From an uncultured Gemmatimonadaceae bacterium (GTDB lineage Bacteria > Gemmatimonadota > Gemmatimonadetes > Gemmatimonadales > Gemmatimonadaceae), in contig CAWHAS010000002.1 of NCBI GenBank assembly GCA_963827355.1, forward strand, positions 63,493 to 127,492: a stretch of DNA of 64,000 nucleotides, read 5' to 3'. The stretch's first letter is position 1. Every line of letters starts with the position of its first letter. A program made the translations under genes and the position numbers. Positions 4,771-45,666 of the stretch are shown piece after piece. The notes beneath the pieces were generated by a model, which did not search any database, was not told where the DNA came from, and saw only the letters and a program-made list of their open reading frames with translations.

Positions 4771-7700
4771 ATGTCGGATCTCCGATCGCGCCTCGAGGAA
4801 TCGCTCTCCGGCGAGCTACACGATCGAGCGCGAGCTCGGCGGCGGCGGCATGTCCCGCGTCTTCGTCGCCGAGGAGCACCGGCTGGGCCGCAAGGTCGTC
4901 GTGAAGGTGCTCTCGCCCGAGCTCGCGGCGGCGATGTCCACCACCCGCTTCGAGCGCGAGATCCGGGTCGCGGCCTCGCTCCAGCAGGCGAACATCGTGC
5001 CGGTGCTCTCGCCGCGGGCGACGTCGACGGGCTGCCGTACTACACGATGCCGTTCGTCGAGGGCGAGAGCCTTCGCGCGCGGCTGGGGCGCGGGCCGGTG
5101 TCGATCGCCGAGACGGTGGGCATCCTGCGCGACGTCGCGCGCGCGCTCGCCTACGCGCACGAGCGCGGCGTCGTGCATCGCGACATCAAGCCCGACAACG
5201 TGCTCCTCTCCGGACACACCGCGGTCGTCACGGACTTCGGCATCGCCAAGGCGATCGCGGCGGCAGCCGAAGCGACGTCGGGCGCAACGCTCACGCAGCT
5301 CGGCACCGCGGTCGGGACGCCGGCCTACATGGCGCCCGAGCAGGCAGCGGGCGATCCGGCGACCGATCATCGCGCCGACATCTACGCGTTCGGGTGCATG
5401 GCGTACGAGCTGCTCGCCGGGCGTCCGCCCTTCTCCGGCCTGCCGCCGCACAAGCTGCTCGTCGCACACATGAGCGAGATGCCGCGGCGGTGGAGTAGCT
5501 TCGCGCCGACTGCCCGCCGGCTCTCGTCGCTGGTGATGCAGTGCCTCGCGAAGGATCCGGCGTCGCGCCCTGAGAATGCGACCGAGTTGCTCCATCGTCT
5601 CGACGCCGTCGCGTCGCCCTCGGGCGCTGCAGCGCCGCGATGCCGGCGATCCTGATCGGCGGCCGCGGAATGCTGAGGCGCGCGTTGGCGGTATACGCCG
5701 CCGCGTTCGTCGGCGTCGCCATCGTCGCGCGCGCGGCGATCATCGCGATCGGTCTTCCCGATTGGGTGTTTCCGGGTGCGCTCGTCGTCATGGCGCTCGG
5801 GCTGCCGGTGATTCTGTTCACGGCGTACACGCAATACGTCTCGCATCGCATGGCGATCGCGACGCCGACCTACACGCCAGGTGGCACGCCGTCGCTCGCC
5901 GGCATGCAGGGCACGATGGCGACGCTGGCGATCAAGGCGAGCCCGCACATGTCGTGGAAGCGCGCGACGCGCGGCGGCATCATCGCGGTGAGCGTGTTCG
6001 CGCTTCTGGTCGCCGGCTGCATGACGCTGCGCGCGCTGGGCATCGGGCCGGCGGGTTCACTGCTGGCGTCCGGAAAGCTGTCGGCGAGCGACAAGGTGCT
6101 CGTGGCCGCGTTCGATGCGCCGGCGGCGGACTCGTCGCTCGGCTCGACGATCGCCGAGGCGGTGCGAACCAATCTGTCGCAGAGCCGCGCCGTGCACGTC
6201 GTGCCGACGAGCGCCGTCGTCGCCGCGCTCGAACAGATGAAGCGGCCCGACACCGCGCGCGTGGACCTGGCCACCGCGCGCGAGATCGCGCAGCGCGCGG
6301 CGCGAAAGCAGTCGTCGCCGGGAGCGTGGTGCCGGCCGGCGGGGGCTACATCGTCACCGCGCGACTCGTCGCGGCCGAAAGCGGCGACGAGCTCGCGTCG
6401 TACCACGAATCGGCGAAGGACGCGGGCGATCTCATTCCGTCGGTGGACCGCGTGACGAAGTCGCTGCGCGGGAAGATCGGCGAGTCGCTCAAGGCGGTGC
6501 GAGAGGCGCCGCGCGCTCGACCAGGTGAGCACCGCGTCGCTCGGCGCACTCCGTAGCTACGCGGCGGGGCTCCATGCCAACGACGTCCAGGGCGACTATC
6601 AGGCCGCGATCGAGTACTTCCACGATGCCATCCGGCAGGACAGCACCTTCGCGATGGCGTACGTGCAGCTCGCCTATTCGTTGCAGACACTCGGCGGTCC
6701 TGGGAGGCGGGCGGAAGCAAACGCGGCGCTCACTTCCGCCTTCAAACTGCGCGACCGGTTGCCGGAACGGGAACGGTACAACGTTGAAGGGGCGTACTAC
6801 TACGCGGCGACGCCCGATCGGAGGAAGGCTATTCCGGCTCTGCGGCGCGCGGTGGAGCTCGACTCGACGAACATCGATGCCGCCAATACGCTGGCGACCG
6901 CGCTCAGCTGACACGCGCGACTATGCCGGCGCCGAGCCGCTGTACAGGCTCGCGATCTCGGACGATCCGAATAACGCCACGCTCCTTACCAATCTCGCGT
7001 CCATGTACTCGCAGATGGGTCGACACGGCGCGGTCGACTCACTGCTGGCGATCGTGGCGAGCAGCAACACGTCCTTCTCGACGGCGCCGACGCACTTCCT
7101 GGATCTCTGGAACCGGCGCGACTACGACGGCGCGCAGCGCCTCGCCCACACGATCGCCGACACCGCAAAACCGCGCGTCGCCGTGGACGCGAACGACGGG
7201 CTCGTCGCGATCGACGTGACGCGCGGCCGGCTGCGCGAGGCCGAACGCAGGTTCGCGCAGGTGAACGAGGCGAAGGCCCGCGTGCAGGGTGATACTGTGA
7301 GTCCGCAAGACGTCGCGTTCTTTCACGCGATGTTGGACGGCCAGCTCCGTGGCGATGCGCCTCGCGGGCTCGCAGAGCTCGACGCCTCGCTCGGCACAAC
7401 GTCAATGACCTCCGTTCCGCTCGCGAAGGACGAGAGCATGGTCTTAGCGGCGGGCTACGGACGTCTCGGTGCCGCAGCGAAGGCGCGAGAGTTGATGACT
7501 CAGCACGAAGCGAGGCTCGACACCCTCGGACGTAATCGGGATGCGGTACAGCTGGCGCGCCTTCACGGATGGATCGCCCTGGCCGAGAGGAAGACCGATA
7601 GCGCTGTCGCGTACTTCCGTCGCGGCGACGCCGAGGCGGACGGATTGCCGACGAGCAGCTGCACCGTCTGCACGCCTCTTTTCATCGGTCTTTCCTTCGA

Positions 7701-9225: not shown

Positions 9226-11338
9226 TCAGCCCGCCGCCGACCTGACGAATACCACAACAGACCGAGCGCTGACTTGGTAGTCGTTCGCTTCAAGCCGCGC
9301 CTCTTCACCCGGTACACGAAAGTCGTCCGGACTAGGCCGCGACGTGTCGATCACGCGGCGCCACTCTGCCGCGGCTCCCTCCTGCACTCGCAACGTGGCG
9401 GTCTCTTGAGTGGCGTTGATCATCACATAGAGGTCAGCGTCGCGCTCCGACAGTCCGTGCAGGCAGAACGCGAGGCGTGACGCGTCCGTCGAGTGAGCGT
9501 CGTCTCGGCCAACATCGTACCACCGCACATCGTCCCGCCAGAAGCGGGAGCGCGCGAGTGATGGATGCTGTTTGCGGAACGCGATCGCGAGCTTCACGAA
9601 GCGCCGCATGTCGGCAAACTCCTCCACACGCCGCCAATCCAGCCACGTCGTCTCGTCGTCCTGGTTGTAAGGGTTGTCGTTGCCGCGCTGCGTCTGAAGG
9701 AACTCGTCGCCCGCGCGAAGCATTGGCGTTCCGTTGGCAAGAAAAAGCAACGCCACGAAGTTCTTCGCCTGTTGAAGTCTCAGGCGGGTCACATCGTCGG
9801 GTACGTCTTCGTCCCCCTCCCAACCGCAGTTCCAGCTGAAGTTCTGCGGCGGCCCGTCCGTGTTCTCATTCCCGTTGGCCCAATTGCGCTTGTGATTGAA
9901 CGACACAAGATCGTAGAGCGTGGGGCCGTCGTGGCAGGTAACGTAGTTGACGCTCTGCGGCGGCCGGTACGCGTGCATGCGATCGTCAGGAAAGAGATCG
10001 TCACTGCCGTAAAGGCGTTGTGTGATCGGAAACGTCGTTCCCGGGTCTCCGCGCAGGAAGCGCCGAACGTCGTCGCGAAACGCTCCGTTCCACTGGTGCC
10101 ACGTCAGCCCGGGAAACCCGCGCCCGAGCTGGTACGCCCCCGCGTCCCACGGTTCGGCGATGAGGCGCGTGTGCGCGAACTCGGGATCGGCGCTGATCTC
10201 TCCGAATGATCGATGGCTCGTCGTAGCGAAGCGCCCCTTCCAAGTCGCGCGTATAGATCGAGGCCAGATCGAAGCGAAAGCCGTCAACGCCGAGCCGAAC
10301 CCAGTGACGCATGCTGTCGAGAATCATCTTCCGCACCATATGGTTCACGCAATTCATCGTGTTCCCGGTGCCGGAATAGTCGGCGTACGGCTGCCGCGCG
10401 TCACCCGTCATTATGTAGTAGGTGCTGTTGTCGATACCCTTGTAGCTGTAGACTGGGCCGGTGCGCCCGCCCTCGGCCGTGTGGTTGTAGACCACGTCCA
10501 GCACGACTTCGATCCCGGCGCGGTGAAGTGCGTCCACCATCTCACGGAACTCGCGATGCCCAGCGCCGGGATCGGGCGCGCACAAGTACTGGTCGTGCAA
10601 GGCGAAGAAGCTCAGTGGCATGTAGCCCCATCGGTCCAATGCGCCGCGATCGTACTGAAAGACCGGCATCAGTTCGACGATCGTCACGCCCAGATCCACG
10701 AGATACGGAATCTTCTCGACGATCCCGGCGAACGTGCCACCTTTCTCCGCACTCACACCCGAGCTCGGGTGCCGGGTGAAGTTGCGGACGTGAAGCTCGT
10801 AGATGACCGCGTCAGCTTCGTGAAACGTCGCACGAGTTGGTGCCGCGGATGCAAACTCGTCAGTTCCCCCCGGATTTGCCGGTGGCATGACGCCGAGTGG
10901 CGCGCGCCCCGCATTCGATCCGCGGCCGACGGCGGCATCACGGTCAAACGCCGGCGGAAAATAGACAGCATCAGCGTACGGGTCGAGCAGAATCTTCTCC
11001 GAATCGAACATGTGCCATTCGACCCGTCCCGACGGCAGGGGCCCTGCCACGGAATACGCGTAGTACCGCGCGCCACGCAAATCCGCCTCAGTCACTCGGC
11101 AATGCCACACACGCCCGGACTTATGGTGCTGATAGTCAAGCTCGAAGCTCGCGGCCGGGTTTACGAGGTCGTCCTCCCTGTATGTGAGGAGGACCACGCG
11201 TTCCGCGTGCTTCGAGTACAGCGCGAAGTTGTAGGCCGATTCCCGCGCCACCCAGGTCACACCGAGCGGAAGCGGCGATCCCTCGCGTTGCGCCCACCCG
11301 CCAAGGGTGGCTGGCCTGGCCAGTGACCACATGTCCAT
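9226..11338 (-). CDS. glgX: Glycogen debranching enzyme (isoamylase, GH13), frame broken once
   Basis: GH13 motifs: GFRFDLAS, LIAEPWD, NYVTCHDGPTLYDLVSF. The N-terminal E-set region reads GSPLPLGVTWVARESAYNFALYSKHAERVVLLTY. ORFs 10001..11386 and 9226..10287 join near 10200-10210 (..YDEPSII / GEISADPEF..). The start is ATG 11338, with GGAGG 7 nt upstream. Confidence 0.85.
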
Positions 11339-11352
11339 GCGTTCCCCTCCAT

Positions 11353-11398
11353 TGAGTACCATCGTATGTGAGCCAATGAGTACCATCGTATGTGAGCC
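11353..11398. repeat. Perfect tandem direct repeat, 22-bp unit with 24-bp period, 2 copies
   Basis: TGAGTACCATCGTATGTGAGCC occurs at 11353..11374 and again at 11377..11398, separated by AA. On the minus strand the repeat ends 3 nt upstream of the GGAGG of glgX. Confidence 0.9.
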
Positions 11399-14876: not shown

Positions 14877-15031
14877 CAGCCTTCATCGGGATTTACTCGA
14901 GAGCAAGCGACCGACTCGAATCGGCAATGTCGAGATCCCCGCGCACGACCAACTAGTCGAGCTCGCCCGCACGTTCCCCAACATCTCGGCGAGCCACATA
15001 CAACCAACTCAATGACATACCACACCCTACA

Positions 15032-15076
15032 AAATAGCAGGGGCGGGACTCGAACCCGCGACCCCGGCATTATGAG
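15032..15076. repeat. att repeat, distal copy (orphan 3' half of tRNA-Met)
   Basis: AAATAGCAGGGGCGGGACTCGAACCCGCGACCCCGGCATTATGAG is identical to 20658..20702. The sequences diverge immediately outside the repeat (GAAGGTG versus TGCCGTG on the right, A versus C on the left). Confidence 0.9.
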
Positions 15077-15352
15077 GAAGGTGAGCCCCGGAGTATGGAG
15101 CGCTCTGTCCTCTGCCCGAAGCGCCACGGTGCGCCACCGCGCAATACGAAGCGCTCCCTATGATGGTGCCGCCGATAGTGCCGCCATCGCGATCGTCGCG
15201 CACGGATAGGCTAGCGGATTCCGGCCTTCTGACACCGTTTCGCCGCGCGCACACGAAGCACTGCGCGAAATAACGGGATGGACATAACGCTAGGCAATCT
15301 CTATTCGAGCCCTCGGCACTCCGCCACGCCCGTTGAGCTTAGCTGACATACC

Positions 15353-15877
15353 TTGCTGCAGGCGCCCCAGCGCCTTGTAGCGCGGAGTGTATCCGTGCCT
15401 GAAGAGATCTCCGGGGCCAGACTGAAAGAAGCCTGGAAGGTGCTGCTAGAGCGATACCAGTGGACCCACTACTGCACTCTCACCTACGACTCTACCGTGC
15501 CGGTTTATCGTTGCCGCCGAGACTTCACGAATACCTTTATTCGACGACTCGCCCGATTCGCTCAACAGCCTGTCCCGTGGTTCTTCGCAATTCAGGGCGC
15601 ACAGGGTTCGGATCGCCCCCACATTCACGCCCTGTTAGGCGGAACTCAGGCGCTTAGCGGAAAGCAGCTCGAAGCTACGTGGCGATTTGGCTACACACGT
15701 GTATTGCGCTACGACCCCACGCGCTCAGCCTGCGGCTATGTCTCGCGTGAGATCCTAGAATCGTCTGACGATCACGATCTTTCTACTCGCTTGCCCGCCT
15801 TGCTGAATCGGCCCGATCAGGGAGAACGGAGAGCCACTCAGGCTACACTGCTCAACGTTGCAACGGATTGCAATTGA
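15353..15877 (+). CDS. Small HUH-type rolling-circle replication initiator (Rep)
   Basis: The three HUH-superfamily motifs appear in order: motif 1 HYCTLTYD, motif 2 RPHIHALLGG (H-hydrophobic-H), motif 3 ACGYVSREI (catalytic Tyr candidate). It is 174 aa with no helicase domain. The start is uncertain: TTG 15353 or GTG 15395. Confidence 0.55.
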   Translation: MLQAPQRLVARSVSVPEEISGARLKEAWKVLLERYQWTHYCTLTYDSTVPVYRCRRDFTNTFIRRLARFAQQPVPWFFAIQGAQGSDRPHIHALLGGTQALSGKQLEATWRFGYTRVLRYDPTRSACGYVSREILESSDDHDLSTRLPALLNRPDQGERRATQATLLNVATDCN

Positions 15878-15916
15878 TTTCGTATTCCTGCGCATGGATA
15901 CGCTAATCGGCTCCAT

Positions 15917-16522
15917 ATGACCAAGCCGACCACCGGCCAGTATTTCGCTCTCGATATGGTTGAGATGTGCCGGCGAGGCGTCTTTGCGAGACCGGGATAC
16001 GGGCCCGCCCTTCTGATTCTCGCAGCGGGCTCCAGCTTTCAAATCCTCAACGTGCGAGTGGAGCCCTCCGCCCCGACCCTCACTGTGCGAGTTGTCACGG
16101 CACAAAGAACCTCCATCGCTCTGCCCTGCCAGGTAAGTAATCCTACGTTTGGGGGCGCCCGCTACTGGTTTACGTGCAGAGCGTGCCACAGACGTTGCAG
16201 GATGCTTTACTGGAGCCGGGCCAGCTTCATCCCCGAATGTAGACTCTGCAAGGGATTGGTCTATTCGACACAGAGAATGTCGCTGCCGAACCAATGGGAA
16301 CGTCGCGCCCGAAGGATAGAACAGAGACTTGGAGGGGAACGCGCGGACGGATTGGTCTATAAACCGAAGCGAATGCACTGGCGGACCTTCAATCGACTAA
16401 TGGATGAAGTCGTCGAGCTCAACGACGGCGCGACATCCTACAGGATTTCGCGAGATCGCGGCTTCCGTTCCTTATGCCGCTCATTGGACATAGAAACAGA
16501 GGTCGAGTCACGCTGTCGCTGA
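15917..16522 (+). CDS. Hypothetical protein with Cys4 zinc-ribbon (CRAC-x7-..-CRLC)
   Basis: A 201-aa ORF begins 40 nt after rep. It contains YWFTCRACHRRCRMLYWSRASFIPECRLCKGLVYSTQ, a zinc-ribbon-like pattern. No family was assigned. Confidence 0.45.
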   Translation: MTKPTTGQYFALDMVEMCRRGVFARPGYGPALLILAAGSSFQILNVRVEPSAPTLTVRVVTAQRTSIALPCQVSNPTFGGARYWFTCRACHRRCRMLYWSRASFIPECRLCKGLVYSTQRMSLPNQWERRARRIEQRLGGERADGLVYKPKRMHWRTFNRLMDEVVELNDGATSYRISRDRGFRSLCRSLDIETEVESRCR

Positions 16523-16853
16523 CTATCGTTCCGCTGGGGGGACCGCGCCCGAGTTGAGGGCTGGAGCAGTTACGCGCACTGAGCGCCATTACCCTCAGCG
16601 ACGCCGCTTTTCATGTAGAAGGGCATGAAACACCGCCGAGTACTCTGTCAAATCCCTTTCGGCGCGGGCGAGTTTCTCAGGCCTCGGAGGCGTACGCCCT
16701 ATAAGCTGACCCACGAAGCTTTTGTGCTCGTGATACAAGACGCGCACATGTTCGAGTATGAGTTCGAGATCCTCAGGTGATAGTCGAGCTGCCTCTCGCG
16801 CCAGTGCCTCGGCGCTTAGAGGAATGAGCGCTCGCAGCGATGACGCACTCGGC

Positions 16854-17399
16854 TTAGCGCGAATGATTGACCTTGAGCCAATCGTTCAATAATTGCTCAA
16901 CCATCGAGATAGTAGCCTCTTGCACTGCCTCATGAATGCGGGCGCCTCCAGCAATGCCAATTTTCCCCAAGGCACTCCAAGTGGTTGCGTCAACGGGCAC
17001 TTTCAACTCGCGAGGCAGGTAAGCCTCTTGCTGAACCGAAAGTTCTGAGCTGTAAATCCACTCGCCTGTTGGATTACCGTTGTCAGTCTCGCGGAGGAGG
17101 GTGATTCGAACGTACACGGTCGCATCGGAGCGGATCAAATCATCGGAAACCGGTATGCCCGCTTGCCGGAGCCTGACCTCGACGGTGGTCTTAATCTCAC
17201 CACTGTCGATGCCCGCGGATCTTGCCTCCTCCGGTAGTTGCTCGACAAGGACGGCGACGTTTCTAATGCCATGCAGGGAGTAGACATTCACAAGTACTCC
17301 ATCGTGGGGCTTATCCGTACCTTGCGCCATCGCGCTTTGAGCGCAAAAGGCAATTCCGAGCAACACTGATGCGACGACTAAATGACGGCTTATGACCAT
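16854..17399 (-). CDS. Secreted hypothetical protein (element cargo)
   Basis: The signal peptide is MVISRHLVVASVLLGIAFCAQSAMAQG. It lies in the low-GC segment, 59 nt downstream of the HEPN-like ORF on the same strand. Confidence 0.5.
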   Translation of the reverse strand: MVISRHLVVASVLLGIAFCAQSAMAQGTDKPHDGVLVNVYSLHGIRNVAVLVEQLPEEARSAGIDSGEIKTTVEVRLRQAGIPVSDDLIRSDATVYVRITLLRETDNGNPTGEWIYSSELSVQQEAYLPRELKVPVDATTWSALGKIGIAGGARIHEAVQEATISMVEQLLNDWLKVNHSR

Positions 17400-17458
17400 T
17401 TGGTTCCTAAGGTTGCAAAGTCGACAGTCATGCTTGACCGAGGTGAGGGAAACTCACA

Positions 17459-18247
17459 CTATCGCTTCCCCTGCTTTCGTTTGGATCCTCTGTGCCCCAA
17501 GTGACCTTCAGAGATATGGTAATCCATAATCATCATCATCGAAGCGGACGTCGTGCCTCGTAATCTCTCGTATTCGAATTCCCGGATGATACTCGGCAGC
17601 GTCGGAAACGCCTTTGACATGTGCACGCTGTGAAGTCGGGCGAACGCGTCGTTGGACATCTTCGAGACTTCCCCAAACACCCTAGTAAGCAGATCGGGGA
17701 CTGCAGCCAGAGGCATCTCCTTCGCCTGAGACCAAGACAGCCCGCTTCCCCACCGCATTCCATCGTGTTCTGCCCCTTGTGGTTCAATTATCGAAAGAAG
17801 ATTTCCTTCGAACTTGAAGGGGATTTTGACTTCGTGCAGAACGGTATTGCGCTGCTGATAGTACTCGTCGAGAGGAGCATGTAGACGCGGGTCTGACCAT
17901 AGGTCCGACAAAGAGTCAAAAGCATCGCAAACGCGTCCGATCTGGGCGTAAAAGGCGACTAGATCATTGATTGCGAACAGATACCTATCCGTGCGATCCA
18001 AAACGGTACTGGTGCCAATTTGCTCTGAATCGACTCTCTGCGATATCAATCGCGCGCACAGTAGCGCTTCAAGAGCGGTGTAGGTGTGCTGAGCCGTTCG
18101 TTCACGCTTCTGCTCCTTCGCTTTGCTGAGAATGGTCCCGAGCGACGAGACGAGAAGTTCCGTCATTTCCGATGAAACGGGACCACATGGTCGCGTATTC
18201 AGGAAGCTGCGCCAAGATGAAAGTGGCGTACGCTCGTTCAAGCTCAT
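17459..18247 (-). CDS. Hypothetical protein with Rx4H (HEPN-like) motif (element cargo)
   Basis: A 262-aa ORF in the low-GC segment. The central YYQQRNTVLHEV fits the HEPN RNase motif R-x4-H, as in RNxxxH of HepT/Abi-type HEPN proteins. The surroundings look helical. Met28 (MTELLVSS..) is an alternative start. Confidence 0.4.
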   Translation of the reverse strand: MSLNERTPLSSWRSFLNTRPCGPVSSEMTELLVSSLGTILSKAKEQKRERTAQHTYTALEALLCARLISQRVDSEQIGTSTVLDRTDRYLFAINDLVAFYAQIGRVCDAFDSLSDLWSDPRLHAPLDEYYQQRNTVLHEVKIPFKFEGNLLSIIEPQGAEHDGMRWGSGLSWSQAKEMPLAAVPDLLTRVFGEVSKMSNDAFARLHSVHMSKAFPTLPSIIREFEYERLRGTTSASMMMIMDYHISEGHLGHRGSKRKQGKR

Positions 18248-18361
18248 CCCCGTGTACTTCCAGACTTGGATTCATCTTCTCTTTGCCTCCGGTGCCGCGA
18301 ATGCAGCGGCAGCGCGCGCTAAGGAGAGTGATTGACCTTGAACAGCCCCGCTTTCGCCGCC

Positions 18362-19149
18362 CTACGCTTGCCGTCGTTTGACTCGCTTTCGCTTCGCCGG
18401 TTTTTCGACCACGAGCGCCTTCAGCTTGGCCACGCCGGCCTGAAGCTTTTCCCGATCCGCATCGGAATCTGGCTCGGGAGGTTCGAGGAGCACGAGTCCG
18501 GTCTTTGGATAGCGCGATTCATATTCTCGCCCAGATCGATTCCGGCAGGCGTTTGATGTGCATCAGATGCAGGGGAAACGGACTAAACCCCAGCGCGATG
18601 CTCTGAAAGCCATCGATCAGCACCTCTCTCAGGGCCTTCTTTCCGCTGCCCGCTAGCAGTCCTGCGAGCAGCCAAGTCCAAGCATCAATCTCGAGGGAGA
18701 CCGCCTTCTCTAGGGTCGCTCCATCCCCACCGCAATTTGTGCCGATACTTACCGCGCCAAGGTTGAAACTCGGGCAGCGATATCGCGCTCGTAAGCACGT
18801 GTGAAGGCAACTCAAGGACAGCGGTTTCCACGTGAATCGGCAATTCTAGTCGCCTCACCAGAGCCTTGTACCGAAGCCACGATGGTCCGCTGTCGGGAGG
18901 TGCCGGTGTCCCTTCCCGCACCGCTCGCCGCGGAGATGGGCCGCCTTCGCGCCCCCCGAGTAGCCAGTCAACCGAAACGGAATAAAAAGAGGCGATCTTC
19001 TGAATTGCGTCGGCACGCGGATTCGGCACCTTGCCCGAAGCGATCCGAGCTAGCGTGGGCTGAGATATCCCAATGTCCTTCGCGGCCAAGTTCACACTGC
19101 CGCCATGATACCGCTCCACGAGGGAGGCGGTGCGCTCAGCAAGTCTCAT
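18362..19149 (-). CDS. XRE/cI-type HTH regulator of the element; C-terminal part continues in two other frames
   Basis: The N-terminus SVNLAAKDIGISQPTLARIASGKVPNPRADAIQKIASFYSVSVDWLLGG is a classic HTH_3/cI-like domain (ORF 18685..19149). Protein-like sequence continues in ORF 18519..18815 (..GDGATLEKAVSLEIDAWTWLLAGLLAGSGKKALREVLIDGF..). It then continues in a third frame down to TAG 18364-18362 (EYESRYPKTGLVLLEPPEPDSDADREKLQAGVAKLKALVVEKPAKRKRVKRRQA). This is either one gene with two indels or three small genes. Confidence 0.5.
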
Positions 19150-19207
19150 TTAGCATAGCTTGACGTGAGTGACTAAGTGGATTATTCATTAGGTACCAGT
19201 TTGAATA

Positions 19208-19232
19208 TGCAGAATGTCGTGGCCACATTGCA
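19208..19232. repeat. Imperfect inverted repeat in the repressor/xis divergent intergenic region (candidate operator)
   Basis: TGCAGAATGT-N7-ACATTGCA, with a 2-nt bulge. It sits in the AT-rich 107-bp gap between the cI-like gene and xis. The gap also contains TTGACG (19171-19176) as a possible -35 element. Confidence 0.25.
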
Positions 19233-19256
19233 ACTATCGACCCCACGAGACAATCA

Positions 19257-19458
19257 ATGGACGAACTTCTCACGCAGAAGCAGGTTGCCGCTCTGATTAA
19301 AACTCAGCGTTTCGTTCGTCCGCCAATCCAATTGCCCCAGACTACCGCTTCCTGGCAATGGTAGGACGGGCAAGCCGCTAATTCGCTACGTGCGCTCGGA
19401 GGTAGTCGCTTGGGCCACGGCGACGCGAGATCGGTCACGCAGGCCGAGCGCGGCTTGA
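19257..19458 (+). CDS. xis: Excisionase/AlpA-type HTH DNA-binding protein, frame broken once
   Basis: MDELLTQKQVAAL.. then, after a shift at the A4 run near 19300, SVSFVRQSNCPRLPLPGNGRTGKPLIRYVRSEVVAWATATRDRSRRPSAA. The (K/R)PLIRY.RSEV.AW block is typical of excisionase-family HTH proteins. Its TGA (19456-19458) directly abuts the integrase ATG. Confidence 0.55.
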
Positions 19459-20584
19459 ATGAAACCCTTCAAGCGAGGGACCCGGCCGTCATTCTATATC
19501 CAAGCCCGGACCTCGAACGGCTCCCGCCGTCAGCTATGCACCGGAACCACGAGTCGCGCCTTGGCGACGAAGATCGAGGCGATGTGCGAGCAGCTCGCGG
19601 TAGCAGATCGCGCGTGGGACTTGCTCGACGCGGTATTTAATCACCGCCTTCCATTGGCGAGACTCTATGATCTGTGGATTGATAGCCGGTATGACGTCAT
19701 TGAGGTTCGCCGGAGATTGGAAGATCACGACGTCGAACGACGCGTCGAAGAGTGGTACCAAAGACATTGCAGAAACGTTAAAGCAGACAGTGCGGCGCAT
19801 GCCCTCGCTCATGTGCGCCGGTTCTTCCCTGAGGGTGTGCCCTGCCCCGCGTCTCGTGTCACACCCATGTGGCTAAGGTCAGAGGCTTTACGATTATACC
19901 GGCAAGCGAAACACGTTGCGAAAGGTGCATAGCTCCATATCTGTGTTTCTCGACTACTGCACGAGACCAGTAGGCATATTTGCCGAAAATCCTATGAACC
20001 TTGTTGACCGCCCCACCCTAGAGCGGTCTCCAATTCGATTCTACGATCTCGATACGGTTGAGAGGATTACTGGAGCCCAAGAGAGTGAGGCGAGGCGTGT
20101 GTTCTTCACACTCGCGTACGGCACGGCCATAGAGGTATCTACTGCCCTCCGACTTACCCGCGCCGACGTGATGACAGAGGCGCGAGAGATTCGCGCGGCT
20201 GGTACGAAGGCCTATTCGCGAGATCGAATGTGCCGCGTCGCAGGATGGGCATGGCCTGCGCTCGAAGCTTACTGCAAGCACATGCTACCGACTGCTCGTC
20301 TGTTCCCGATTGCATGGACGCGATGGACCGTGAGCGACTGGCACCGCCAGACTGTAATTCGGCTCGGGCTCGCGATCTATCCTCTGCACTGCGCGCGAGA
20401 TCATTGGGCTGTGCGGGCTCTCAGAGCGAGCGCTCCCGTCGCCGTTGTCCAGCAGCAGCTCGGGCATTCAAGTCCGATGCTAACGCTCACCAAGTACGGC
20501 CGTTTCATTCCCACCGCGGCCGATAGGAACGAATGGGAGCGCAGGGCAACGGAGCAGGATGAGCGAATCAGAGCGGCGAAATGA
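19459..20584 (+). CDS. int: Tyrosine recombinase / phage-type integrase, frame broken once
   Basis: ORFs 19459..19932 and 19916..20584 are collinear, with the shift near 19900-19930. The catalytic region reads AIEVSTALRLTRADV (Arg), LHCARDHWAVRAL (H-x-x-R) and LGHSSPMLTLTKYGRF (His..Tyr). The gene lies next to the target tRNA. Confidence 0.8.
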
Positions 20585-20657
20585 GCAGTCCTAGTGCCGC
20601 TGGTGGTGCCAGCCTAATCTCAACTAGAGAGGGAGTGATGCTAAGTCGTTGTGTTTC

Positions 20658-20702
20658 AAATAGCAGGGGCGGGACTCGAACCCGCGACCCCGGCATTATG
20701 AG
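20658..20702. repeat. att repeat, proximal copy (inside the intact tRNA-Met gene)
   Basis: Identical to 15032..15076. It covers the tRNA from the anticodon loop to the discriminator, plus 3 nt. Confidence 0.9.
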
Positions 20703-20734
20703 TGCCGTGCTCTAACCAGCTGAGCTACCCTGCC
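20661..20734 (-). tRNA. tRNA-Met (anticodon CAT), elongator type; Ile2 (lysidine) identity cannot be excluded
   Basis: Minus-strand sequence: GGCAGGGTAGCTCAGCTGGTTAGAGCACGGCACTCATAATGCCGGGGTCGCGGGTTCGAGTCCCGCCCCTGCTA. It folds as a cloverleaf with a 7-bp acceptor stem (G1-U72), a CTCATAA anticodon loop and a GCGGG/CCCGC T-stem. It lacks the initiator GGG/CCC anticodon stem. No CCA is encoded. Confidence 0.9.
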
Positions 20735-22175: not shown

Positions 22176-24517
22176 TCAGTACTTCCACTCGAGGCCGAAG
22201 GTGGCGCTCCGCCGCGGAAGGAGCAGAAGTCCGGGTGCACCGGCCGGCGCCGCGAGCATCCCGAGCGCGTTGCCGCGATCGAAGAGATTCGTGAGCCCGA
22301 CGCTCGTCGTGAGGCCGCTTTCGCGCCCGAACAGCCGCAGACGCCAGTCGTGTCTGACGCCGACGTCGAAGCGGACGTACGCCGGCAACCGCGCGGCATC
22401 CAAGGCGCCCACGATGCGCTGCGGTGAACCGGCGAGATCGCCCTGTCCGGCGGACGACGTATACGGCGTCCACTCGATTGGATCCGAATAGAGACTGGTC
22501 GGCGCACCGCCGTGCACGGCCACGGCCAGGCGCAACACCGTCGATGGCTCTACGCGCAGGCCCACGGCCGCCATCGCCGACTGCGCGGTTCCGTACGACG
22601 GCGTGTAGGAGAGTCCACCAGCTCTCTGCGTCACCGACGACAGCGAATATCCGATCTCGCCCGTCACCCGCTCTCCCTCGCGCGCCAGCAGCACGGACAG
22701 TCCGTTCGCGCGCGCGCTCCCGACATCGAACGCGGTCGTCGCGAATGGCTGCGCGGTAACGGGAGCCACCAGCACGAGTCCCGACACATCGCGCCAGTAC
22801 GCGGTGGCGCGCAGCGTGAGCGATTGCGAGAGACGAGCATCTGCCGTCGCGGTCAACTGATCGGCCTGCGCCACCGGCACCACGGCGCCGTTGAAGTTCG
22901 AGCCAGCGATGGCAGGGAGCGAAATGCCGGCGATGGCGTCGAACAACGATTCCTCGTTGCGCAACGACTGCACGTACTGGTGCAATCGTGCATAGCTCAG
23001 GCCGAACGACAGAGCGGAGCCGGGTGAGAATCGCGCCGAGAGCCGCGGCTCGAGACCCGTGCGCGCCGGCGCCACGAGCGCGTCGCGCACCCCCGCCGCG
23101 AACGCCCAGCGCTCGCCCACGCTCCACTGCGCCTCGCCAAACGCCGACAACAGCAGCGGCGTATTCGCGAGCGCGAGCGGTGCCGCCACGCCAGTCGCGG
23201 TGTTCGTGACGTCGTAGCGCACATCGTAGCGATCTGCGCTCACACCGCTCTGCAAGTGCGCACCGGCCCACATCCACGACGCGCTCGCGGCCGCCCCGAG
23301 ATCTTCGAGGCTGTTCCTGAGACGCGAGGTGCCAGCCCACGCAAAGTCGGCGTCGAACTGCGTGCGCCACGCGCGCAGCTCCCAGCGCGTTTCCCCGTCG
23401 GAGTGCCAGCGCAGCGCGTCCGTTCCGGTGTTCCAGACAAGCGCGTTCATCATCTGCTGCGGCGCCTGTGCCCCATCGAGATCGCTCTCCACTCGCGAAT
23501 CAACCGGTCGCCGGAAATTGGAGCATCCGCCTCCGCCGTTGCATCGAAGGACAGCCGGTCCTTGCTGTGAAACGCGAACGCCTCGAGCTCGCCTCCGCGC
23601 GTGGGCATCGTGAATCTCGCGAACAGGTCGCCGAACTCCGCGCCGCCAATGGAGCCCGAGGGCGAATCCGAGAGCGAGGCATCGAGACTGCGACGGAGCG
23701 CAACGAGGAAGGTGCCGTTGTGAATGGCGAGCGGCCCACTCACCTCCTCGCGCAACGAGCGCGCGCCGAACGCGCCGCGCGTCTCGATGCGCGTCGTATC
23801 CGCGGGCATGGTGGCGAGACCGATCACGCCGGCCGTCGCATCGCCCTGCGCGGCACTCGGCGCGCCGCGAGCGAGCGAGACGCTCGAGATCACGTCGGGG
23901 TTGAGCGCGGTGAGTGCGCCCGTGGAGTGGTAGGGGTTGAACACCGGCACGCCATCAATCGATATGCCGTTCTCCGATGCCCCGCCGCCGAACACGTGCA
24001 GCGATGTCGGCGCCTCGTCGCGCGCGCCCGCGAGCCCGCGCGACGCGAGGCTCTGCAGCGCATCGGCGCTCGCGAGCGCCGGATCGTCGTGAAGTTGGGC
24101 ACCAGACACGACCGTGGATTCGAATCCGCTTCGTTCGAGAAGCGTGGTCGGTCGCAGTGTGGCACTATCGCGATCGAACGCCGCACTGACTCGCAGCTCG
24201 CTGAGTCGCTCCGGGCGCGGCACGAGCACGATGTCGACGACGACGCGCGGCGACGTGTTGAGGAAGACGTCGAGCTCGCGCGGATCAAACCCGATGCGAC
24301 TCACTCGAAGGTGATAGGTGCCGGAGGGCAATCCCGGCAGCGCGTACCGCCCCGCCGAATCCGTGAGCACGCGTATCGCCGAGTCGGGGGCCGCGGCGCT
24401 CGTGATCTCGATCAGCGCCGCGACCACGGGAGCCGACGCGTCCGACGAACGCACGCTTCCCTCCAGCGACGCGACTCCAGTGGCATGGAGGAGGGCGAGG
24501 ACGAGGGCGAGGCTCAC
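22176..24517 (-). CDS. TonB-dependent-receptor-like outer-membrane protein with N-terminal carboxypeptidase-regulatory-like domain, frame broken once
   Basis: GTG start at 24517. The N-terminal domain reads SLEGSVRS..VLTDSAGRYALPGLPSGTYHLRVSRIGF. A plug-like segment reads LHVFGGGASENGISIDGVPVFNPYH. The remainder is a long beta-barrel with alternating pattern, ending in a terminal aromatic residue (..SATFGLEWKY). ORFs 23450..24517 and 22176..23492 join near 23460-23490. Confidence 0.7.
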
Positions 24518-26944: not shown

Positions 26945-27018
<74 letters not shown>

Positions 27019-27055: not shown

Positions 27056-27358
27056 TCAAGGTTTGCGGGCGCTATCCGGCTCCGCGAATCGATACAGAAT
27101 CTCCTTGTTGCCGCGCACCATTCCGAACTCCTCGCGCGCGATCCGCTCCTGCACCGCTGGATCCGCCTGCACGGCCTTCTTCACCCTCGCGAGCGAGTCG
27201 ATCTCGTGGCGCAGCGAGTCCATTCCCGCACGCATGCGCTTCGCGCGCGAGCGTTGACCCAGCAGCGCCGTCGTGCTGTATTCCCCGCCCTGCAGCGCGT
27301 ACACCAGCACGACCGCGCCGATCGCGATCCAGATGAGCCGACTCAACTGCTCGCGCAC
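27056..27358 (-). CDS. ftsB: Septum formation initiator (FtsB/DivIC family)
   Basis: A 100-aa protein with one TM helix (LIWIAIGAVVLVYAL), a coiled coil, and the C-terminal IAREEFGMVRGNKEILYRF. It occupies the conserved position downstream of eno. Confidence 0.75.
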   Translation of the reverse strand: MREQLSRLIWIAIGAVVLVYALQGGEYSTTALLGQRSRAKRMRAGMDSLRHEIDSLARVKKAVQADPAVQERIAREEFGMVRGNKEILYRFAEPDSARKP

Positions 27359-27379
27359 GCGTCCTCTCCTGTTCGCCGC

Positions 27380-29450
<2,071 letters not shown>

Positions 29451-29452
29451 GT

Positions 29453-30385
29453 TCAGGAAAAGTGGCGGAACCCCTCGGCGCGCGCCAGCCGCTCGCCGTT
29501 CATCCGCACGGAGACGCCGATACCGTCCGGGATCGGCTCGAGCACGCGCCCCACCGCCGTGAGCGAGAGGTGATTTGCGCGCTCGAACGCGGACACGTTC
29601 AGCGCGGCGGCGCACACGATGAGCTCGTACTCCTCGCCACTCACGGCCGCATCGTGCGCACTCACTCCCTCGTGCAGCGGAAGCTGGTCGAGATCGATCT
29701 GTATGCGCACGCCACTGCCCACCGCCATGTGCTCGGCGTCGGCGAGCAGCCCATCCGAGATGTCGATCGCCGCGCGCGCGCCGCCGCGCGCGAGCCAGAT
29801 CGCCTCCGCAATGCGCGCGACGGGATGCGCAAAGCGTTCGCGCGCTTCCTGCGCTGGTGTGTCGCCGCGCTGCCACGCCGCGAGCGCTGCGCCGGGACCC
29901 CCGAGCGTTCCGGTGACGTACACCGTGTCTCCCAGGCGCGCACCGTTGCGGCGCAGCGGTGTGGCCGTGCTGCCGAGGACTGTGAATCCGAGCGTCAGAT
30001 CGCTCGCGCCGGTGATGTCGCCGCCGCGCACGATCGTCTTCGCGCGATCGAGGGCGTCGCCGACGCCGTCGCCGATCTCGCCGACTTCGTCGAGCCACGA
30101 CCTCGGAAGCCCGAGCGCGAGGAGAACGCCGAGCGGCCATGCGGCCATCGCGGCGAGATCGCTGAGCGCGGCCATCGTGGCGCGATAGCCGATCTCGCGC
30201 GGCGTGAGCCAGGCGCGCTCGAAGTGAATGTGCTCCACCGATGTATCGGCGCTCGCGACGAGGTGCTCGCCCGCCGGCACGTCGAGGAGCGCCGCATCAT
30301 CGCCGATGCCCGTCGCGCGCGCGCCCCACCGCGCGAGGAGAGCGCGAATGATGTCGAACTCGCGGCCCGGGCCGAGCTCGATCAC
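29453..30385 (-). CDS. thiL: Thiamine-monophosphate kinase
   Basis: EFDIIRALLARWG..GIGDDAALLDVP..LVASADTSVEHIHF.., with AIR-synthase-like N and C domains. GTG 30385 overlaps the nnr stop (GTGA). The reading frame is intact. Confidence 0.8.
   Translation of the reverse strand: MIELGPGREFDIIRALLARWGARATGIGDDAALLDVPAGEHLVASADTSVEHIHFERAWLTPREIGYRATMAALSDLAAMAAWPLGVLLALGLPRSWLDEVGEIGDGVGDALDRAKTIVRGGDITGASDLTLGFTVLGSTATPLRRNGARLGDTVYVTGTLGGPGAALAAWQRGDTPAQEARERFAHPVARIAEAIWLARGGARAAIDISDGLLADAEHMAVGSGVRIQIDLDQLPLHEGVSAHDAAVSGEEYELIVCAAALNVSAFERANHLSLTAVGRVLEPIPDGIGVSVRMNGERLARAEGFRHFS

Positions 30386-42917: not shown

Positions 42918-45653
<2,736 letters not shown>

Positions 45654-45666
<13 letters not shown>

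Follow-up and report, generated by a model that had tools for sequence, protein, structure and literature searches.

A tyrosine integrase and a short rolling-circle replication initiator are brought together in a block of DNA inserted at a tRNA-Met gene, and the question raised by this locus is what kind of mobile element the block represents and by what means it might spread. The element was analysed within a window of 64 kb, the whole stretch of DNA under study. Its features are as follows (strand in brackets).

15032..15076: attL, left 45-bp repeat copy, an orphan tRNA-Met 3' half with a 100% match to tRNA positions 33-74
15077..15352 (+): conserved non-coding stretch separating attL from rep, a candidate for an attP arm, the rep promoter or an origin
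15353..15877 (+): rep, encoding a short rolling-circle initiator of the HUH type (174 aa, start TTG 15353)
15917..16522 (+): orf201, Zn-ribbon protein (CxxC...CxxC), conserved rep partner, function unassigned
16854..17399 (-): orf181, cargo, predicted to be secreted from a signal-peptide-like N-terminus read from the translation
17459..18247 (-): orf262, cargo, predicted to be mostly helical
18685..19149 (-): gene for an XRE/cI-type repressor, transcribed away from xis-int
19257..19458 (+): xis, excisionase / recombination directionality factor, frameshifted; homologues abut int
19459..20584 (+): int, tyrosine integrase, 374 aa after removal of an extra A at 19875
20640..20652 (+): GCTAAGTCGTTGT motif just inside attR, candidate integrase-binding site
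20658..20702: attR, right 45-bp repeat copy, making up the 3' part of the intact tRNA
20661..20734 (-): tRNA-Met(CAU), target gene (attB)

Boundaries and target site

The element of 5,626 bp is bracketed by a perfect direct repeat of 45 bp (15032-15076 and 20658-20702). The window contains two copies of the 45-mer AAATAGCAGGGGCGGGACTCGAACCCGCGACCCCGGCATTATGAG and no more, in direct orientation, and the number of copies expected from 100 shuffles was zero even with three mismatches allowed. The right copy covers everything between the first anticodon-loop base (tRNA position 32) and the discriminator (position 74), both included, together with the next 3 nt, and belongs to an intact tRNA-Met(CAU) gene detected by ARAGORN and by the Rfam tRNA model (70.8 bits). 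From its tRNA features we take this gene to be of the elongator type; it is distinct from a second, initiator-type tRNA-Met at 26945-27018. The left copy lacks the 5' half of the tRNA. The preliminary description had read the two copies as the footprint of anticodon-loop integration, with an intact tRNA on the right and an orphan 3' half on the left, and this reading stands in all its parts. The inserted element restores the tRNA 3' half.

The lower GC content noted earlier was borne out by computation (57.1% in the element vs 65.2% in the remaining window). With a tetranucleotide distance reaching z = 5.5, the element is the strongest outlier in the window; ranked by deviation, the top five 2-kb windows of the 64 kb all fall within it. 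Repeat, tRNA half and compositional change point to the same boundaries. An independent ENA contig of 5,586 bp (L001), 99.9% identical, comprises the interior only and corresponds to window positions 15073-20658.

The GCTAAGTCGTTGT motif is present in a single perfect copy in the window. In L006-L009 it likewise lies directly inside attR, and in L010 this position holds its first 9 nt, GCTAAGTCG; all these loci carry an integrase of the same family with different cargo. In the window, in L014 and in L010, the neighbourhood tRNA-Met ... tRNA-fMet-DivIC-enolase is occupied by a different element each time, and L003 contains a tandem array in which three tRNA halves are orphans; the tRNA-Met site is an integration hot spot. 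The attP or empty attB junction that the preliminary description had proposed to look for was not found with an attP pattern in viral contigs, and scans of genomes and metagenomes were unproductive.

Gene content of the element

The gene adjoining the tRNA had been recognised as a tyrosine integrase, and the assignment is confirmed (PF00589, phrog_1). The identities of int and xis stand as first given, but a frameshift in each had been overlooked. In int the extra A at 19875 divides the gene into two reading frames; for the repaired product over 200 full-length homologues are known, 370-400 aa in size (45-60% identity, 97-100% coverage). Residues K250, H310-x-x-R313, H336 and Y346 are conserved; at the position of the catalytic Arg I the protein has Glu, and its family Glu/Asp. 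The xis stop codon (TGA 19456-19458) does abut the int ATG, as had been noted, but through the frameshift the ORF to which it belongs has no start codon of its own: the N-terminus begins at ATG 19257 in the other frame, and the extra base lies in an A-run near 19298-19301. The repaired Xis (66 aa) is 44% identical to the product of a gene abutting int in L004 (79 aa), with further matches to the Xis genes of L007 and L014. Profile searches matched Int, Rep and the XRE repressor; the L004 homologue of Xis is a weak match to TIGR01764 'excise'.

Both frameshifts are probably assembly indel errors, because the window contains further split genes, housekeeping genes included (enolase and valyl-tRNA synthetase, and also an acyltransferase and a TonB receptor). 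The extra A at 19875 is missing from the int gene of L001, where a G is inserted after 19740 instead. The xis lesion is common to both contigs; it could be real, and would then cripple excision.

The divergent repressor, identified as such from the start, matches HTH_3 (E = 8e-8), phrog_8 and several 'transcriptional repressor' PHROGs. The reading of Rep as an HUH protein was likewise upheld by PF23343 (REP_ORF2-G2P; 30.9 bits, above the gathering score of 27.8), and Rep also matches phrog_942. In L001 the gene is called from GTG 15395 (160 aa). The domain family is common to Rep, Microviridae VP4 and the gpII/ORF2 proteins of Inoviridae/Plectrovirus, with motifs I, II (HUH) and III (Tyr); in Rep these are TLT, HIH and Y129, which are kept across the family. 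Identity to Microviridae VP4 and replication initiators is 25-32%; Rep, however, has about half the length of VP4 and resides in a chromosomal, capsid-less element with an integrase. No match was found in the plasmid collection. Divergence from the L003 relative is biased to third codon positions (19/11/59), a pattern indicating purifying selection on rep.

The 276 bp upstream of rep are 90-94% identical to the L003 relative, whereas rep itself is only 73-81% identical. They contain the tandem 12-mers GATGGTGCCGCC/GATAGTGCCGCC at 15162-15185 and the 12-mer AGGTGAGCCCCG at 15079, which is also present upstream of rep in L016. The region showed no special fold, significant hairpin or Rfam match. 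No origin or nick site was identified in the element, and the CTTGATA motif is absent. Homologues of orf201 directly follow rep in L016 (37% over 196 aa), L014 (39%) and P0126 (41%); the protein had no match in Pfam, PHROGs, NCBIfam, PADLOC or PDB, and its AF2 model is of low confidence.

The cargo genes orf181, located in the lowest-GC part of the element, and orf262 gave no family match in Pfam, PHROGs, NCBIfam or PADLOC; the single-sequence AF2 model of orf262 (pLDDT 37) is unusable. In agreement with the preliminary description, none of the element ORFs matched capsid, terminase, tail, relaxase, coupling-protein or FtsK-like genes in the same four collections.

The Rep family and its genomic contexts

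With a Rep profile, 889 cluster representatives (50% identity) were retrieved at E<=1e-3 and 386 of them at E<=1e-10; almost all measure 115-220 aa, and PF23343 was the sole match in all 60 family Reps sampled. An integrase is present in five of the eight readable Rep contexts, four of them with an adjacent Xis-like gene; the sites are tRNA-Met (n=4) and tRNA-Lys (n=1). Besides the window, the contexts with both Rep and Int are:

L004/L005: attL-Rep-orf104-cupin-HTH-Xis-Int, about 4.3 kb
P0131: Rep and Int
L014/L015: XRE / orf67-Rep-Xis-Int-tRNA-Met
L018: Rep...XRE / Xis-Int in tRNA-Lys, with an integrase of a different family

The three contexts lacking an integrase are L003 (none within the 20-kb locus), L016 (the contig ends just upstream of rep) and P0280 (a 12.5-kb contig, seen as a gene table only). 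Cargo differs between members. These contexts delineate a sizeable metagenomic family of short PF23343 Reps, often accompanied by an integrase and usually by a Xis-like gene, at tRNA genes.

Nature of the element and its possible spread

We consider it likely that the element is a site-specific integrative, helper-dependent 'hitcher' in the anticodon-loop-to-3'-end segment of the elongator tRNA-Met, excised by Int/Xis, amplified by Rep and spread by a helper. The XRE repressor would hold the xis-int operon off; upon derepression a circle would be released through Int/Xis recombination between attL and attR. Within this circle, rep-orf201 would follow immediately after xis-int, across attP and with the same orientation. 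No terminator was detected between them, so Rep expression may be coupled to excision. Rep would start rolling-circle amplification by nicking an origin, whose probable location is the conserved 276 bp preceding rep. The element's own genes include nothing indicating conjugation or packaging, and passage to another cell would require a conjugative element or a packaging phage; with a conjugative helper, Rep might serve as a non-canonical relaxase, a role already proposed in streptococcal IMEs. Int would finally reinsert the element into tRNA-Met.

An integrase combined with an RCR-type Rep for maintenance or mobilization has precedents (PMC5704250, PMC5357655), and the initial statement that the element fits no known class was too strong. 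Streptococcal IMEs of 5-18 kb encode an integrase and an RCR-initiator-like protein, in some cases with the Microviridae-type domain PHA00330, and some lack a coupling protein (PMC5357655, PMC5704250); PHA00330 is also the annotation of a microvirus Rep (PMC8548822). Those of the Rel_PHA00330 class (Coluzzi 2017, PMC5357655; Guedon 2017, PMC5704250) share with our element the small size, own integrase and phage-type HUH initiator; they often reside at the 3' end of tRNA or other genes, and helper-dependent transfer is assumed for them. In contrast, their hosts are Firmicutes, not high-GC metagenome bacteria, most encode the TcpA coupling protein, and Rep of our element is a minimal protein (~160-175 aa) with a Zn-ribbon partner. 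The comparison is one of published descriptions, and the relaxase role is a proposal in both cases.

AICEs also combine tRNA integration, an int-xis module and their own replication initiator. Their defining feature, however, is an FtsK-like Tra DNA translocase together with spread (spd) genes; these confer self-transmissibility, and the element has none of them. They span 9-24 kb, the element being half AICE size, and RepSA of the AICE pSAM2 is of the rolling-circle type. Three named AICEs measure 10.9-17.3 kb (PMC2440964). PICMI, the minimal phage satellites of ~6 kb (PMC10803314), resemble the element in having an integrase, a regulator, a replication initiator and a small gene overlapping or abutting int (needed for excision in PICMI), and in lacking capsid and packaging genes, being fully helper-dependent. 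They differ in their primase-type initiator and AlpA activator, as opposed to HUH Rep and XRE repressor, and in integrating next to fis in Vibrionaceae; phage dependence of our element is hypothetical.

That it is itself a phage satellite seems unlikely, yet this is the strongest of the alternatives. A helper phage, either tailed and packaging concatemers as for PICMI or an ssDNA microvirus, would lift XRE repression, leading to excision, Rep amplification and packaging in helper capsids. Microvirus genomes measure ~4.4-6 kb, which covers the 4.3- and 5.6-kb family members but is exceeded by one of 6.9 kb. Rep is closest to Microviridae VP4, L018 has a small-terminase-like gene (PF20901 Sf6_terminase) typical of satellite packaging redirection, L016 carries defence cargo frequent in satellites (GmrSD, HNH and an MmeI-type restriction-modification gene), and the combination of int and xis with a divergently transcribed repressor and a replication initiator, structural genes being absent, is a satellite architecture (PMC10803314). 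However, the window element has no terS, capsid-remodelling gene or recognisable pac or cos site, no Rep relative was found in IMG/VR viral contigs, HUH-type rolling-circle replication yields ssDNA circles, not dsDNA concatemers, and no helper has been identified.

It is more doubtful still that the element is what is left of an integrated RCR plasmid or island, decaying and immobilised by broken xis and int. The frameshifts, the xis lesion common to L001, and decay in L003 and P0004 (Rep without integrase, or an internal deletion in Rep) would agree with it. Nevertheless, the att repeats are still identical at 45/45 positions, the remaining ORFs are all intact, the int frameshifts differ between the two contigs, each being right where the other is wrong, as fits random assembly errors, and frameshifts in the essential genes for enolase and ValRS mark the assembly as indel-prone. 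A defective ssDNA-phage prophage (Microviridae or Inoviridae) that gained an integrase and lost its capsid or morphogenesis genes would account for the PF23343 relationship with plectroviruses and inoviruses, the ~30% identity to VP4 and the microvirus-like size, but is very improbable given that all ORFs are too short for VP1, no Zot/pI-like ATPase or coat-protein match was found, the Reps have about half the VP4 length, and the capsid-less layout recurs in divergent members (Rep 33-44% identical), indicating a stable design and not a recent loss.

An integrated RCR plasmid and a satellite-like element, the two options first offered, are both still live. The element represents a real new family, whereas the helper-dependent kind to which it would belong is itself already known.

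Delimitation and gene content of the element

The 45-mer AAATAGCAGGGGCGGGACTCGAACCCGCGACCCCGGCATTATGAG occurs twice in the window, at 15032-15076 and 20658-20702; no other copy was detected in a window-wide search even with up to three mismatches allowed, and no repeat of this length is expected by chance. The right copy corresponds to positions 32-74 of an intact tRNA-Met(CAT) gene plus three downstream bases, so that its start coincides with the first anticodon-loop base; the left copy represents an orphan tRNA 3′ half. The perfect repeat, with the intact tRNA on the right and the orphan half on the left, had been claimed in the preliminary description and has been borne out by the repeat search, ARAGORN and Rfam. 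The direct repeat, the intact tRNA gene at the int-proximal end and the orphan half at the distal end show that the element was inserted site-specifically in the anticodon loop with regeneration of the tRNA. The distance between the repeat starts, 5,626 bp, is the expected size of the excised circle. The deviant composition suspected earlier was also confirmed when computed: GC content is 57.1% within the element vs 65.2% elsewhere in the window, the tetranucleotide distance reaches its maximum there (z = 5.5), and of all 2-kb windows across the 64 kb the five with the largest deviation fall within the element. It is a genuine, well-delimited integrative element, organized as follows.

Features of the tRNA-Met element (window coordinates)
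15032-15076, attL, orphan tRNA-Met 3′ half
left end of the element, non-coding stretch of 276 bp
15353-15877, plus strand, rep, match to PF23343 (REP_ORF2-G2P) above the gathering score and to phrog_942
15917-16522, plus strand, orf201, product with two CxxC pairs
orf181 and orf262, minus strand, no matches, in the lowest-GC part of the element
18685-19149, minus strand, XRE repressor
xis and int, plus strand, oriented towards the tRNA
20658-20702, attR, 3′ part of the tRNA gene plus three downstream bases
20661-20734, minus strand, intact tRNA-Met(CAT) (ARAGORN and Rfam)

When all ORFs of the element were searched against Pfam, PHROGs, NCBIfam and PADLOC, no capsid, terminase, tail, relaxase, coupling-protein or FtsK-like match was obtained, in agreement with the preliminary description, and no defence match either. 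Structure predictions were of low confidence for orf262 (pLDDT 37) and orf201 (pLDDT 41), a profile search of the PDB with orf201 returned nothing, and promoter and terminator scans gave nothing above chance.

The expected junctions are ...GCTAAGTCGTTGTGTTTC + 45-mer + GAAGGTGAGCCCCGGAG... for attP and ...ACCACACCCTACA + 45-mer + TGCCGTGCTCTAACC... for the empty attB. Neither was found: genome and metagenome scans yielded no usable loci, the attP pattern had no match in viral contigs, and the same tRNA site in related genomes is filled by other elements.

The Rep family and the occupation of its tRNA sites

The Rep product matches PF23343 with 30.9 bits (cut-off 27.8) over profile positions 2-94 of 99 and carries motif I, the HUH motif and the catalytic Tyr of HUH Rep domains; across 60 family members H90-I-H92 is invariant, T42-L-T44 and Y129 are nearly so, and PF23343 is the only match of all 60. 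Rep is 25-32% identical to Microviridae VP4/replication initiators, has no match among 72,556 plasmids, and its profile found only a non-significant match in the PDB, SIRV1 ORF119 (E = 0.31). The family is large: an exhaustive profile search gave 889 cluster representatives at E ≤ 1e-3 (386 at E ≤ 1e-10), nearly all with lengths of 115-220 aa. Scans of genomes with either the Rep alignment or the integrase returned nothing, the metagenome scan gave L005 only, and no relative was met in viral scans (IMG/VR). The copies and relatives which could be read in context are listed below.

Contexts of relatives of the element
L001, ENA ERZ25039534 contig_5209, 5,586 bp, 99.9% identical twin contig corresponding to window 15073-20658, i.e. 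element interior only
L003, 235-kb JGI contig, Rep 72% identical, right beside a perfect orphan tRNA-Met half
L004/L005, about 4.3 kb, attL - Rep (174 aa, 33% identical) - orf104 - cupin (minus strand) - HTH - Xis - Int (55% identical)
L014/L015, XRE (minus strand) / orf67 - Rep - Xis - Int adjoining tRNA-Met
L016, Rep followed by an orf201 homologue and defence-type cargo (GmrSD, HNH, MmeI-type methylase)
L018, Rep ... Sf6_terminase-like gene ... XRE (minus strand) / Xis - Int of a different integrase family, tRNA-Lys
P0131, 2.7-kb contig, Rep, a small ORF, an HTH_17 protein, then a gene starting at the HTH_17 stop
P0280, 12.5-kb contig (gene table only), HTH_17 protein, Rep, a 234-aa protein and further ORFs, no integrase

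An integrase is present in five of the eight Rep contexts read, P0131 being counted by position only, since its last gene is cut by the contig end and has no Pfam call; by its place it is probably an integrase. An Xis-like gene is adjacent in four of these five, the HTH_17 protein occupying that place in P0131. The architecture persists down to 33-44% Rep identity, and a Zn-ribbon protein is encoded in three members (the window, L016 and L014). The anticodon-loop arrangement recurs in L004/L005 and, with tRNA-Lys(UUU), in the 6.9-kb element L018, whose contig ends overlap in the tRNA 3′ half, implying a 43-bp att site; at 2829-3464 this element carries the small-terminase-like gene (PF20901 Sf6_terminase, precomputed match). 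Contigs from four independent assemblies (L001, the L004 end, L005 and L018) end at or within att repeats, so the element is often a contig of its own. This fits branching of the assembly graph with several junction types in the sample and is not proof of excision.

The 276 bp upstream of rep are 90-94% identical between the window and L003, the value for rep itself being 73-81% with a bias of substitutions to third codon positions (19/11/59); constraint is therefore stronger on the non-coding DNA than on the gene. In the search for a nick site or origin, the CTTGATA motif proved absent, the 276-bp DNA folds no better than its shuffles and forms no significant hairpin, no motif is common to all members, and k-mer sharing across five rep upstream regions was limited to a borderline 9- to 12-mer. 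The 12-mer AGGTGAGCCCCG lies 3 nt inside attL (15079-15090) in the window and in L003, and also at 409-420 of L016, 132 nt upstream of rep; it is a borderline candidate for a Rep or Int recognition site.

In L010, a locus with the same type of integrase, and in L014 int lies beside an intact tRNA-Met, with no attL within the loci read. The tRNA-Met genes of L014 and the window are identical at 71 of 74 positions and the neighbouring tRNA-fMet genes at 74 of 74. The order tRNA-fMet-DivIC-enolase-acyltransferase-ThiL-YjeF is common to the window (26945-27018, the initiator-type tRNA-Met, and 27059-31902) and L014 (9277-14295), the enolases sharing 71-83% of amino acids; L010 (15778-21149) has DivIC, enolase, ThiL and YjeF as in the window, with no second tRNA detected and without the acyltransferase. 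The nearby elongator tRNA-Met is filled by a different element in each of the three. L010 also contains an orphan 5′ part of tRNA-Met (15667-15704, positions 1-38, 97% identical) 4.4 kb past the intact tRNA, beyond IS-type transposase genes.

In L003 the same tRNA site holds islands arranged in tandem. The orphan tRNA-Met 3′ halves of this locus, all in direct orientation, lie at 3183-3227 (a), 9637-9681 (b) and 18121-18165 (c); the further halves, 6.4 kb left and 8.4 kb right of the perfect one, are degenerate, and the 20-kb locus lacks an intact tRNA. The sequences that follow halves a and c are homologous to each other and belong to a second, different type of element. Between a and b lies an island with genes for a P-type ATPase, cytochrome c, OsmC and PBP and with no integrase. 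In L006 (1892-13055; also in L007-L009) an integrase of the same integrase family as in the window is followed by an orphan tRNA-Met half (3132-3174), with a CRISPR array (more than 30 repeats) and a type I-E cas operon directly beyond it; this CRISPR-Cas island may have entered the same tRNA-Met site.

The 44 nt outside attL (14988-15031) are 78% identical between the window and L003 (9592-9636), though the genes further left differ; they may be either the original sequence downstream of the tRNA or the tail end of an older element. In L004 a CAATGA(C/T) motif is found twice left of attL (about 6920-6967). A remnant of an older island left of attL, considered because of a cupin gene, a histidine-kinase fragment and a GC dip, was unsupported; no third tRNA half and no genes common to other loci were found there, and the cupin is unrelated to the cargo cupin of L004. 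Elsewhere in the window, the 24-nt unit CAATGAGTACCATCGTATGTGAGC is tandemly duplicated at about 11343-11398 upstream of a baeRF-family gene, and 29500-32000, which overlaps the ThiL/YjeF region, is the second strongest tetranucleotide outlier with a GC content of about 72%.

Integrase and excisionase genes

Both int and xis are present, as the preliminary description had it, and each is frameshifted, which had escaped it. The integrase is not encoded in one uninterrupted frame: int starts at 19459 in frame 1 and switches to frame 2 at about 19877, the ORF being split by an extra A at 19875. Removal of this base gives a 374-aa Int with more than 200 full-length homologues (370-400 aa, 45-60% identity, 97-100% coverage). 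The 157-aa ORF at 19459-19932 was rejected as an excisionase, being the N-terminal part of the integrase. The xis ORF that runs up to the int ATG lacks a start codon of its own, and its N-terminus (ATG 19257, MDELLTQKQVAAL...) lies in another frame; one base fewer in the A-run near 19298-19301 gives a 66-aa Xis, 44% identical to the int-abutting gene of L004 and also matching genes of L007 and L014.

Decay into pseudogenes was set aside, because housekeeping genes in the window are split too and the int indels differ between the window and its twin. L001 lacks the extra A at 19875 and has its own G insertion after 19740; in int each copy is correct at the position at which the other is not, as random indels of an error-prone assembly would produce. 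Enolase (27383-28664) is broken into two frames and an acyltransferase (28753-29450) into three, and ValRS (42918-45666) and a TonB receptor (22176-24517) are split as well, so that with int and xis at least seven single-base indels fall within 64 kb. The extra A in int is thus probably an assembly indel. The xis lesion is common to both copies and could reflect either a systematic error at the homopolymer or a genuine mutation. With indels so frequent, essential genes included, apparent pseudogenes in the window are to be distrusted.

The catalytic domain of Int was recognized by PF00589 (33.6-34.7 bits, cut-off 27.1) and phrog_1 (E = 1e-17), and the family profile matches XerA/XerD structures (E = 2e-15 and 6e-13). 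K250, H310/R313, H336 and Y346 are conserved, and four of these residues (R313, K250, H336 and Y346) do not vary among the 27 sequences. At the place of XerD R148 in the alignment (Arg I; E225 in the repaired Int), 24 of the 27 have Glu and three have Asp; R234 and R254/R256 are conserved in the clade and might substitute for Arg I. Gibb et al. put the share of tyrosine recombinases without Arg I at about 9% and ask whether these are active (PMC2943603). The perfect att repeats argue that the present clade, with its acidic residue at this position, would be active, and a clade of this kind leaving fresh integration footprints bears on that question. Its members adjoin tRNA-Met in the window and L010 and orphan tRNA halves in L006-L009, and a distant member (36-38% identical) adjoins tRNA-Met in L014. 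Replication modules differ among elements of the clade, an HUH Rep being encoded in the window and an AAA_25 protein in L010. The motif GCTAAGTCG(TTGT) is found just inside attR in three otherwise dissimilar elements.

Class membership and possible mode of transfer

Allowing for the likely sequencing errors, the element has a full set of genes for integration, regulation and initiation of rolling-circle replication (RCR), and genes for particles and conjugation are absent. The earlier statement that it fits no class was too strong, since streptococcal integrative mobilizable elements (IMEs), actinomycete integrative conjugative elements (AICEs) and PICMI, a minimal phage satellite of Vibrionaceae, are comparable. 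The closest described kind are the streptococcal IMEs: among 144 elements of 5-18 kb, 118 encode an integrase and an RCR-initiator-like protein, in 21 of the 118 with the PHA00330 domain (PMC5357655, PMC5704250), which annotates Microviridae Rep (PMC8548822), and some lack a coupling protein. Our element likewise has Int, Xis and Rep and no T4SS, coupling-protein or canonical relaxase matches, and no conjugative element was seen within the 64-kb window. In the IME literature it is supported that RCR initiators double as relaxases (PMC5704250). We consider the element a new family within a known kind of helper-dependent element. Minimal PF23343 Reps, often with a Zn-ribbon partner, on Int modules that mostly include an adjacent Xis-like gene, in uncultured high-GC bacteria, appear to be undescribed in the searchable literature.

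The XRE repressor would control xis-int expression, and excision would yield a 5.6-kb circle on which Rep would drive rolling-circle replication from an origin in the conserved region upstream of rep; a helper would then provide transfer and Int would mediate reinsertion. In the circle, xis-int and rep-orf201 form one co-directional block across attP, and no terminator was detected after int (a weak test), so that Rep expression could, speculatively, be coupled to excision.

A phage helper is conceivable for part of the family. PICMI, an element of about 6 kb that encodes an integrase, a regulator and a replication protein and lacks packaging genes, shows that a unit of this kind can function as a satellite (PMC10803314). 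The small-terminase-like gene of L018 and the defence cargo of L016 point towards a satellite lifestyle of at least some members, and the former hints at tailed-phage satellites driven by RCR; in the window element neither terS nor a remodelling gene was found. It is improbable that the short-Rep/integrase elements are satellites of ssDNA phages, with Rep spinning off ssDNA circles of 4.3-6.9 kb for encapsidation by a helper microvirus. The smaller circles of this series are of what we take to be microvirus genome size, and we know of no described satellite of an ssDNA phage.

AICEs have tRNA integration, int-xis and Rep in common with the element, and their defining FtsK-like Tra (PMC2440964) is missing here, with no FtsK/SpoIIIE-like Tra or spd match in any of its ORFs. 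A Microviridae or Inoviridae prophage is contradicted by the longest ORF of 262 aa and by the lack of structural matches in Pfam and PHROGs, and the Charybdis elements (bioRxiv 2025.08.03.668216) proved unrelated.

Small islands for which no means of transfer is apparent make up a large share of bacterial mobilomes and are poorly understood, and the present element is a cleanly delimited, nearly minimal example (about seven genes) from uncultured high-GC bacteria. Short HUH initiators form several hundred clusters, several readable examples of which sit on Int modules at tRNA genes, most with an Xis-like gene, with variable cargo that includes defence genes. A short PF23343 Rep together with an integrase, usually accompanied by Xis, beside a tRNA gene may serve as a marker for helper-dependent elements in metagenomes, and such elements offer a tractable system for the role of an RCR initiator in an integrative element, be it maintenance, mobilization or packaging.
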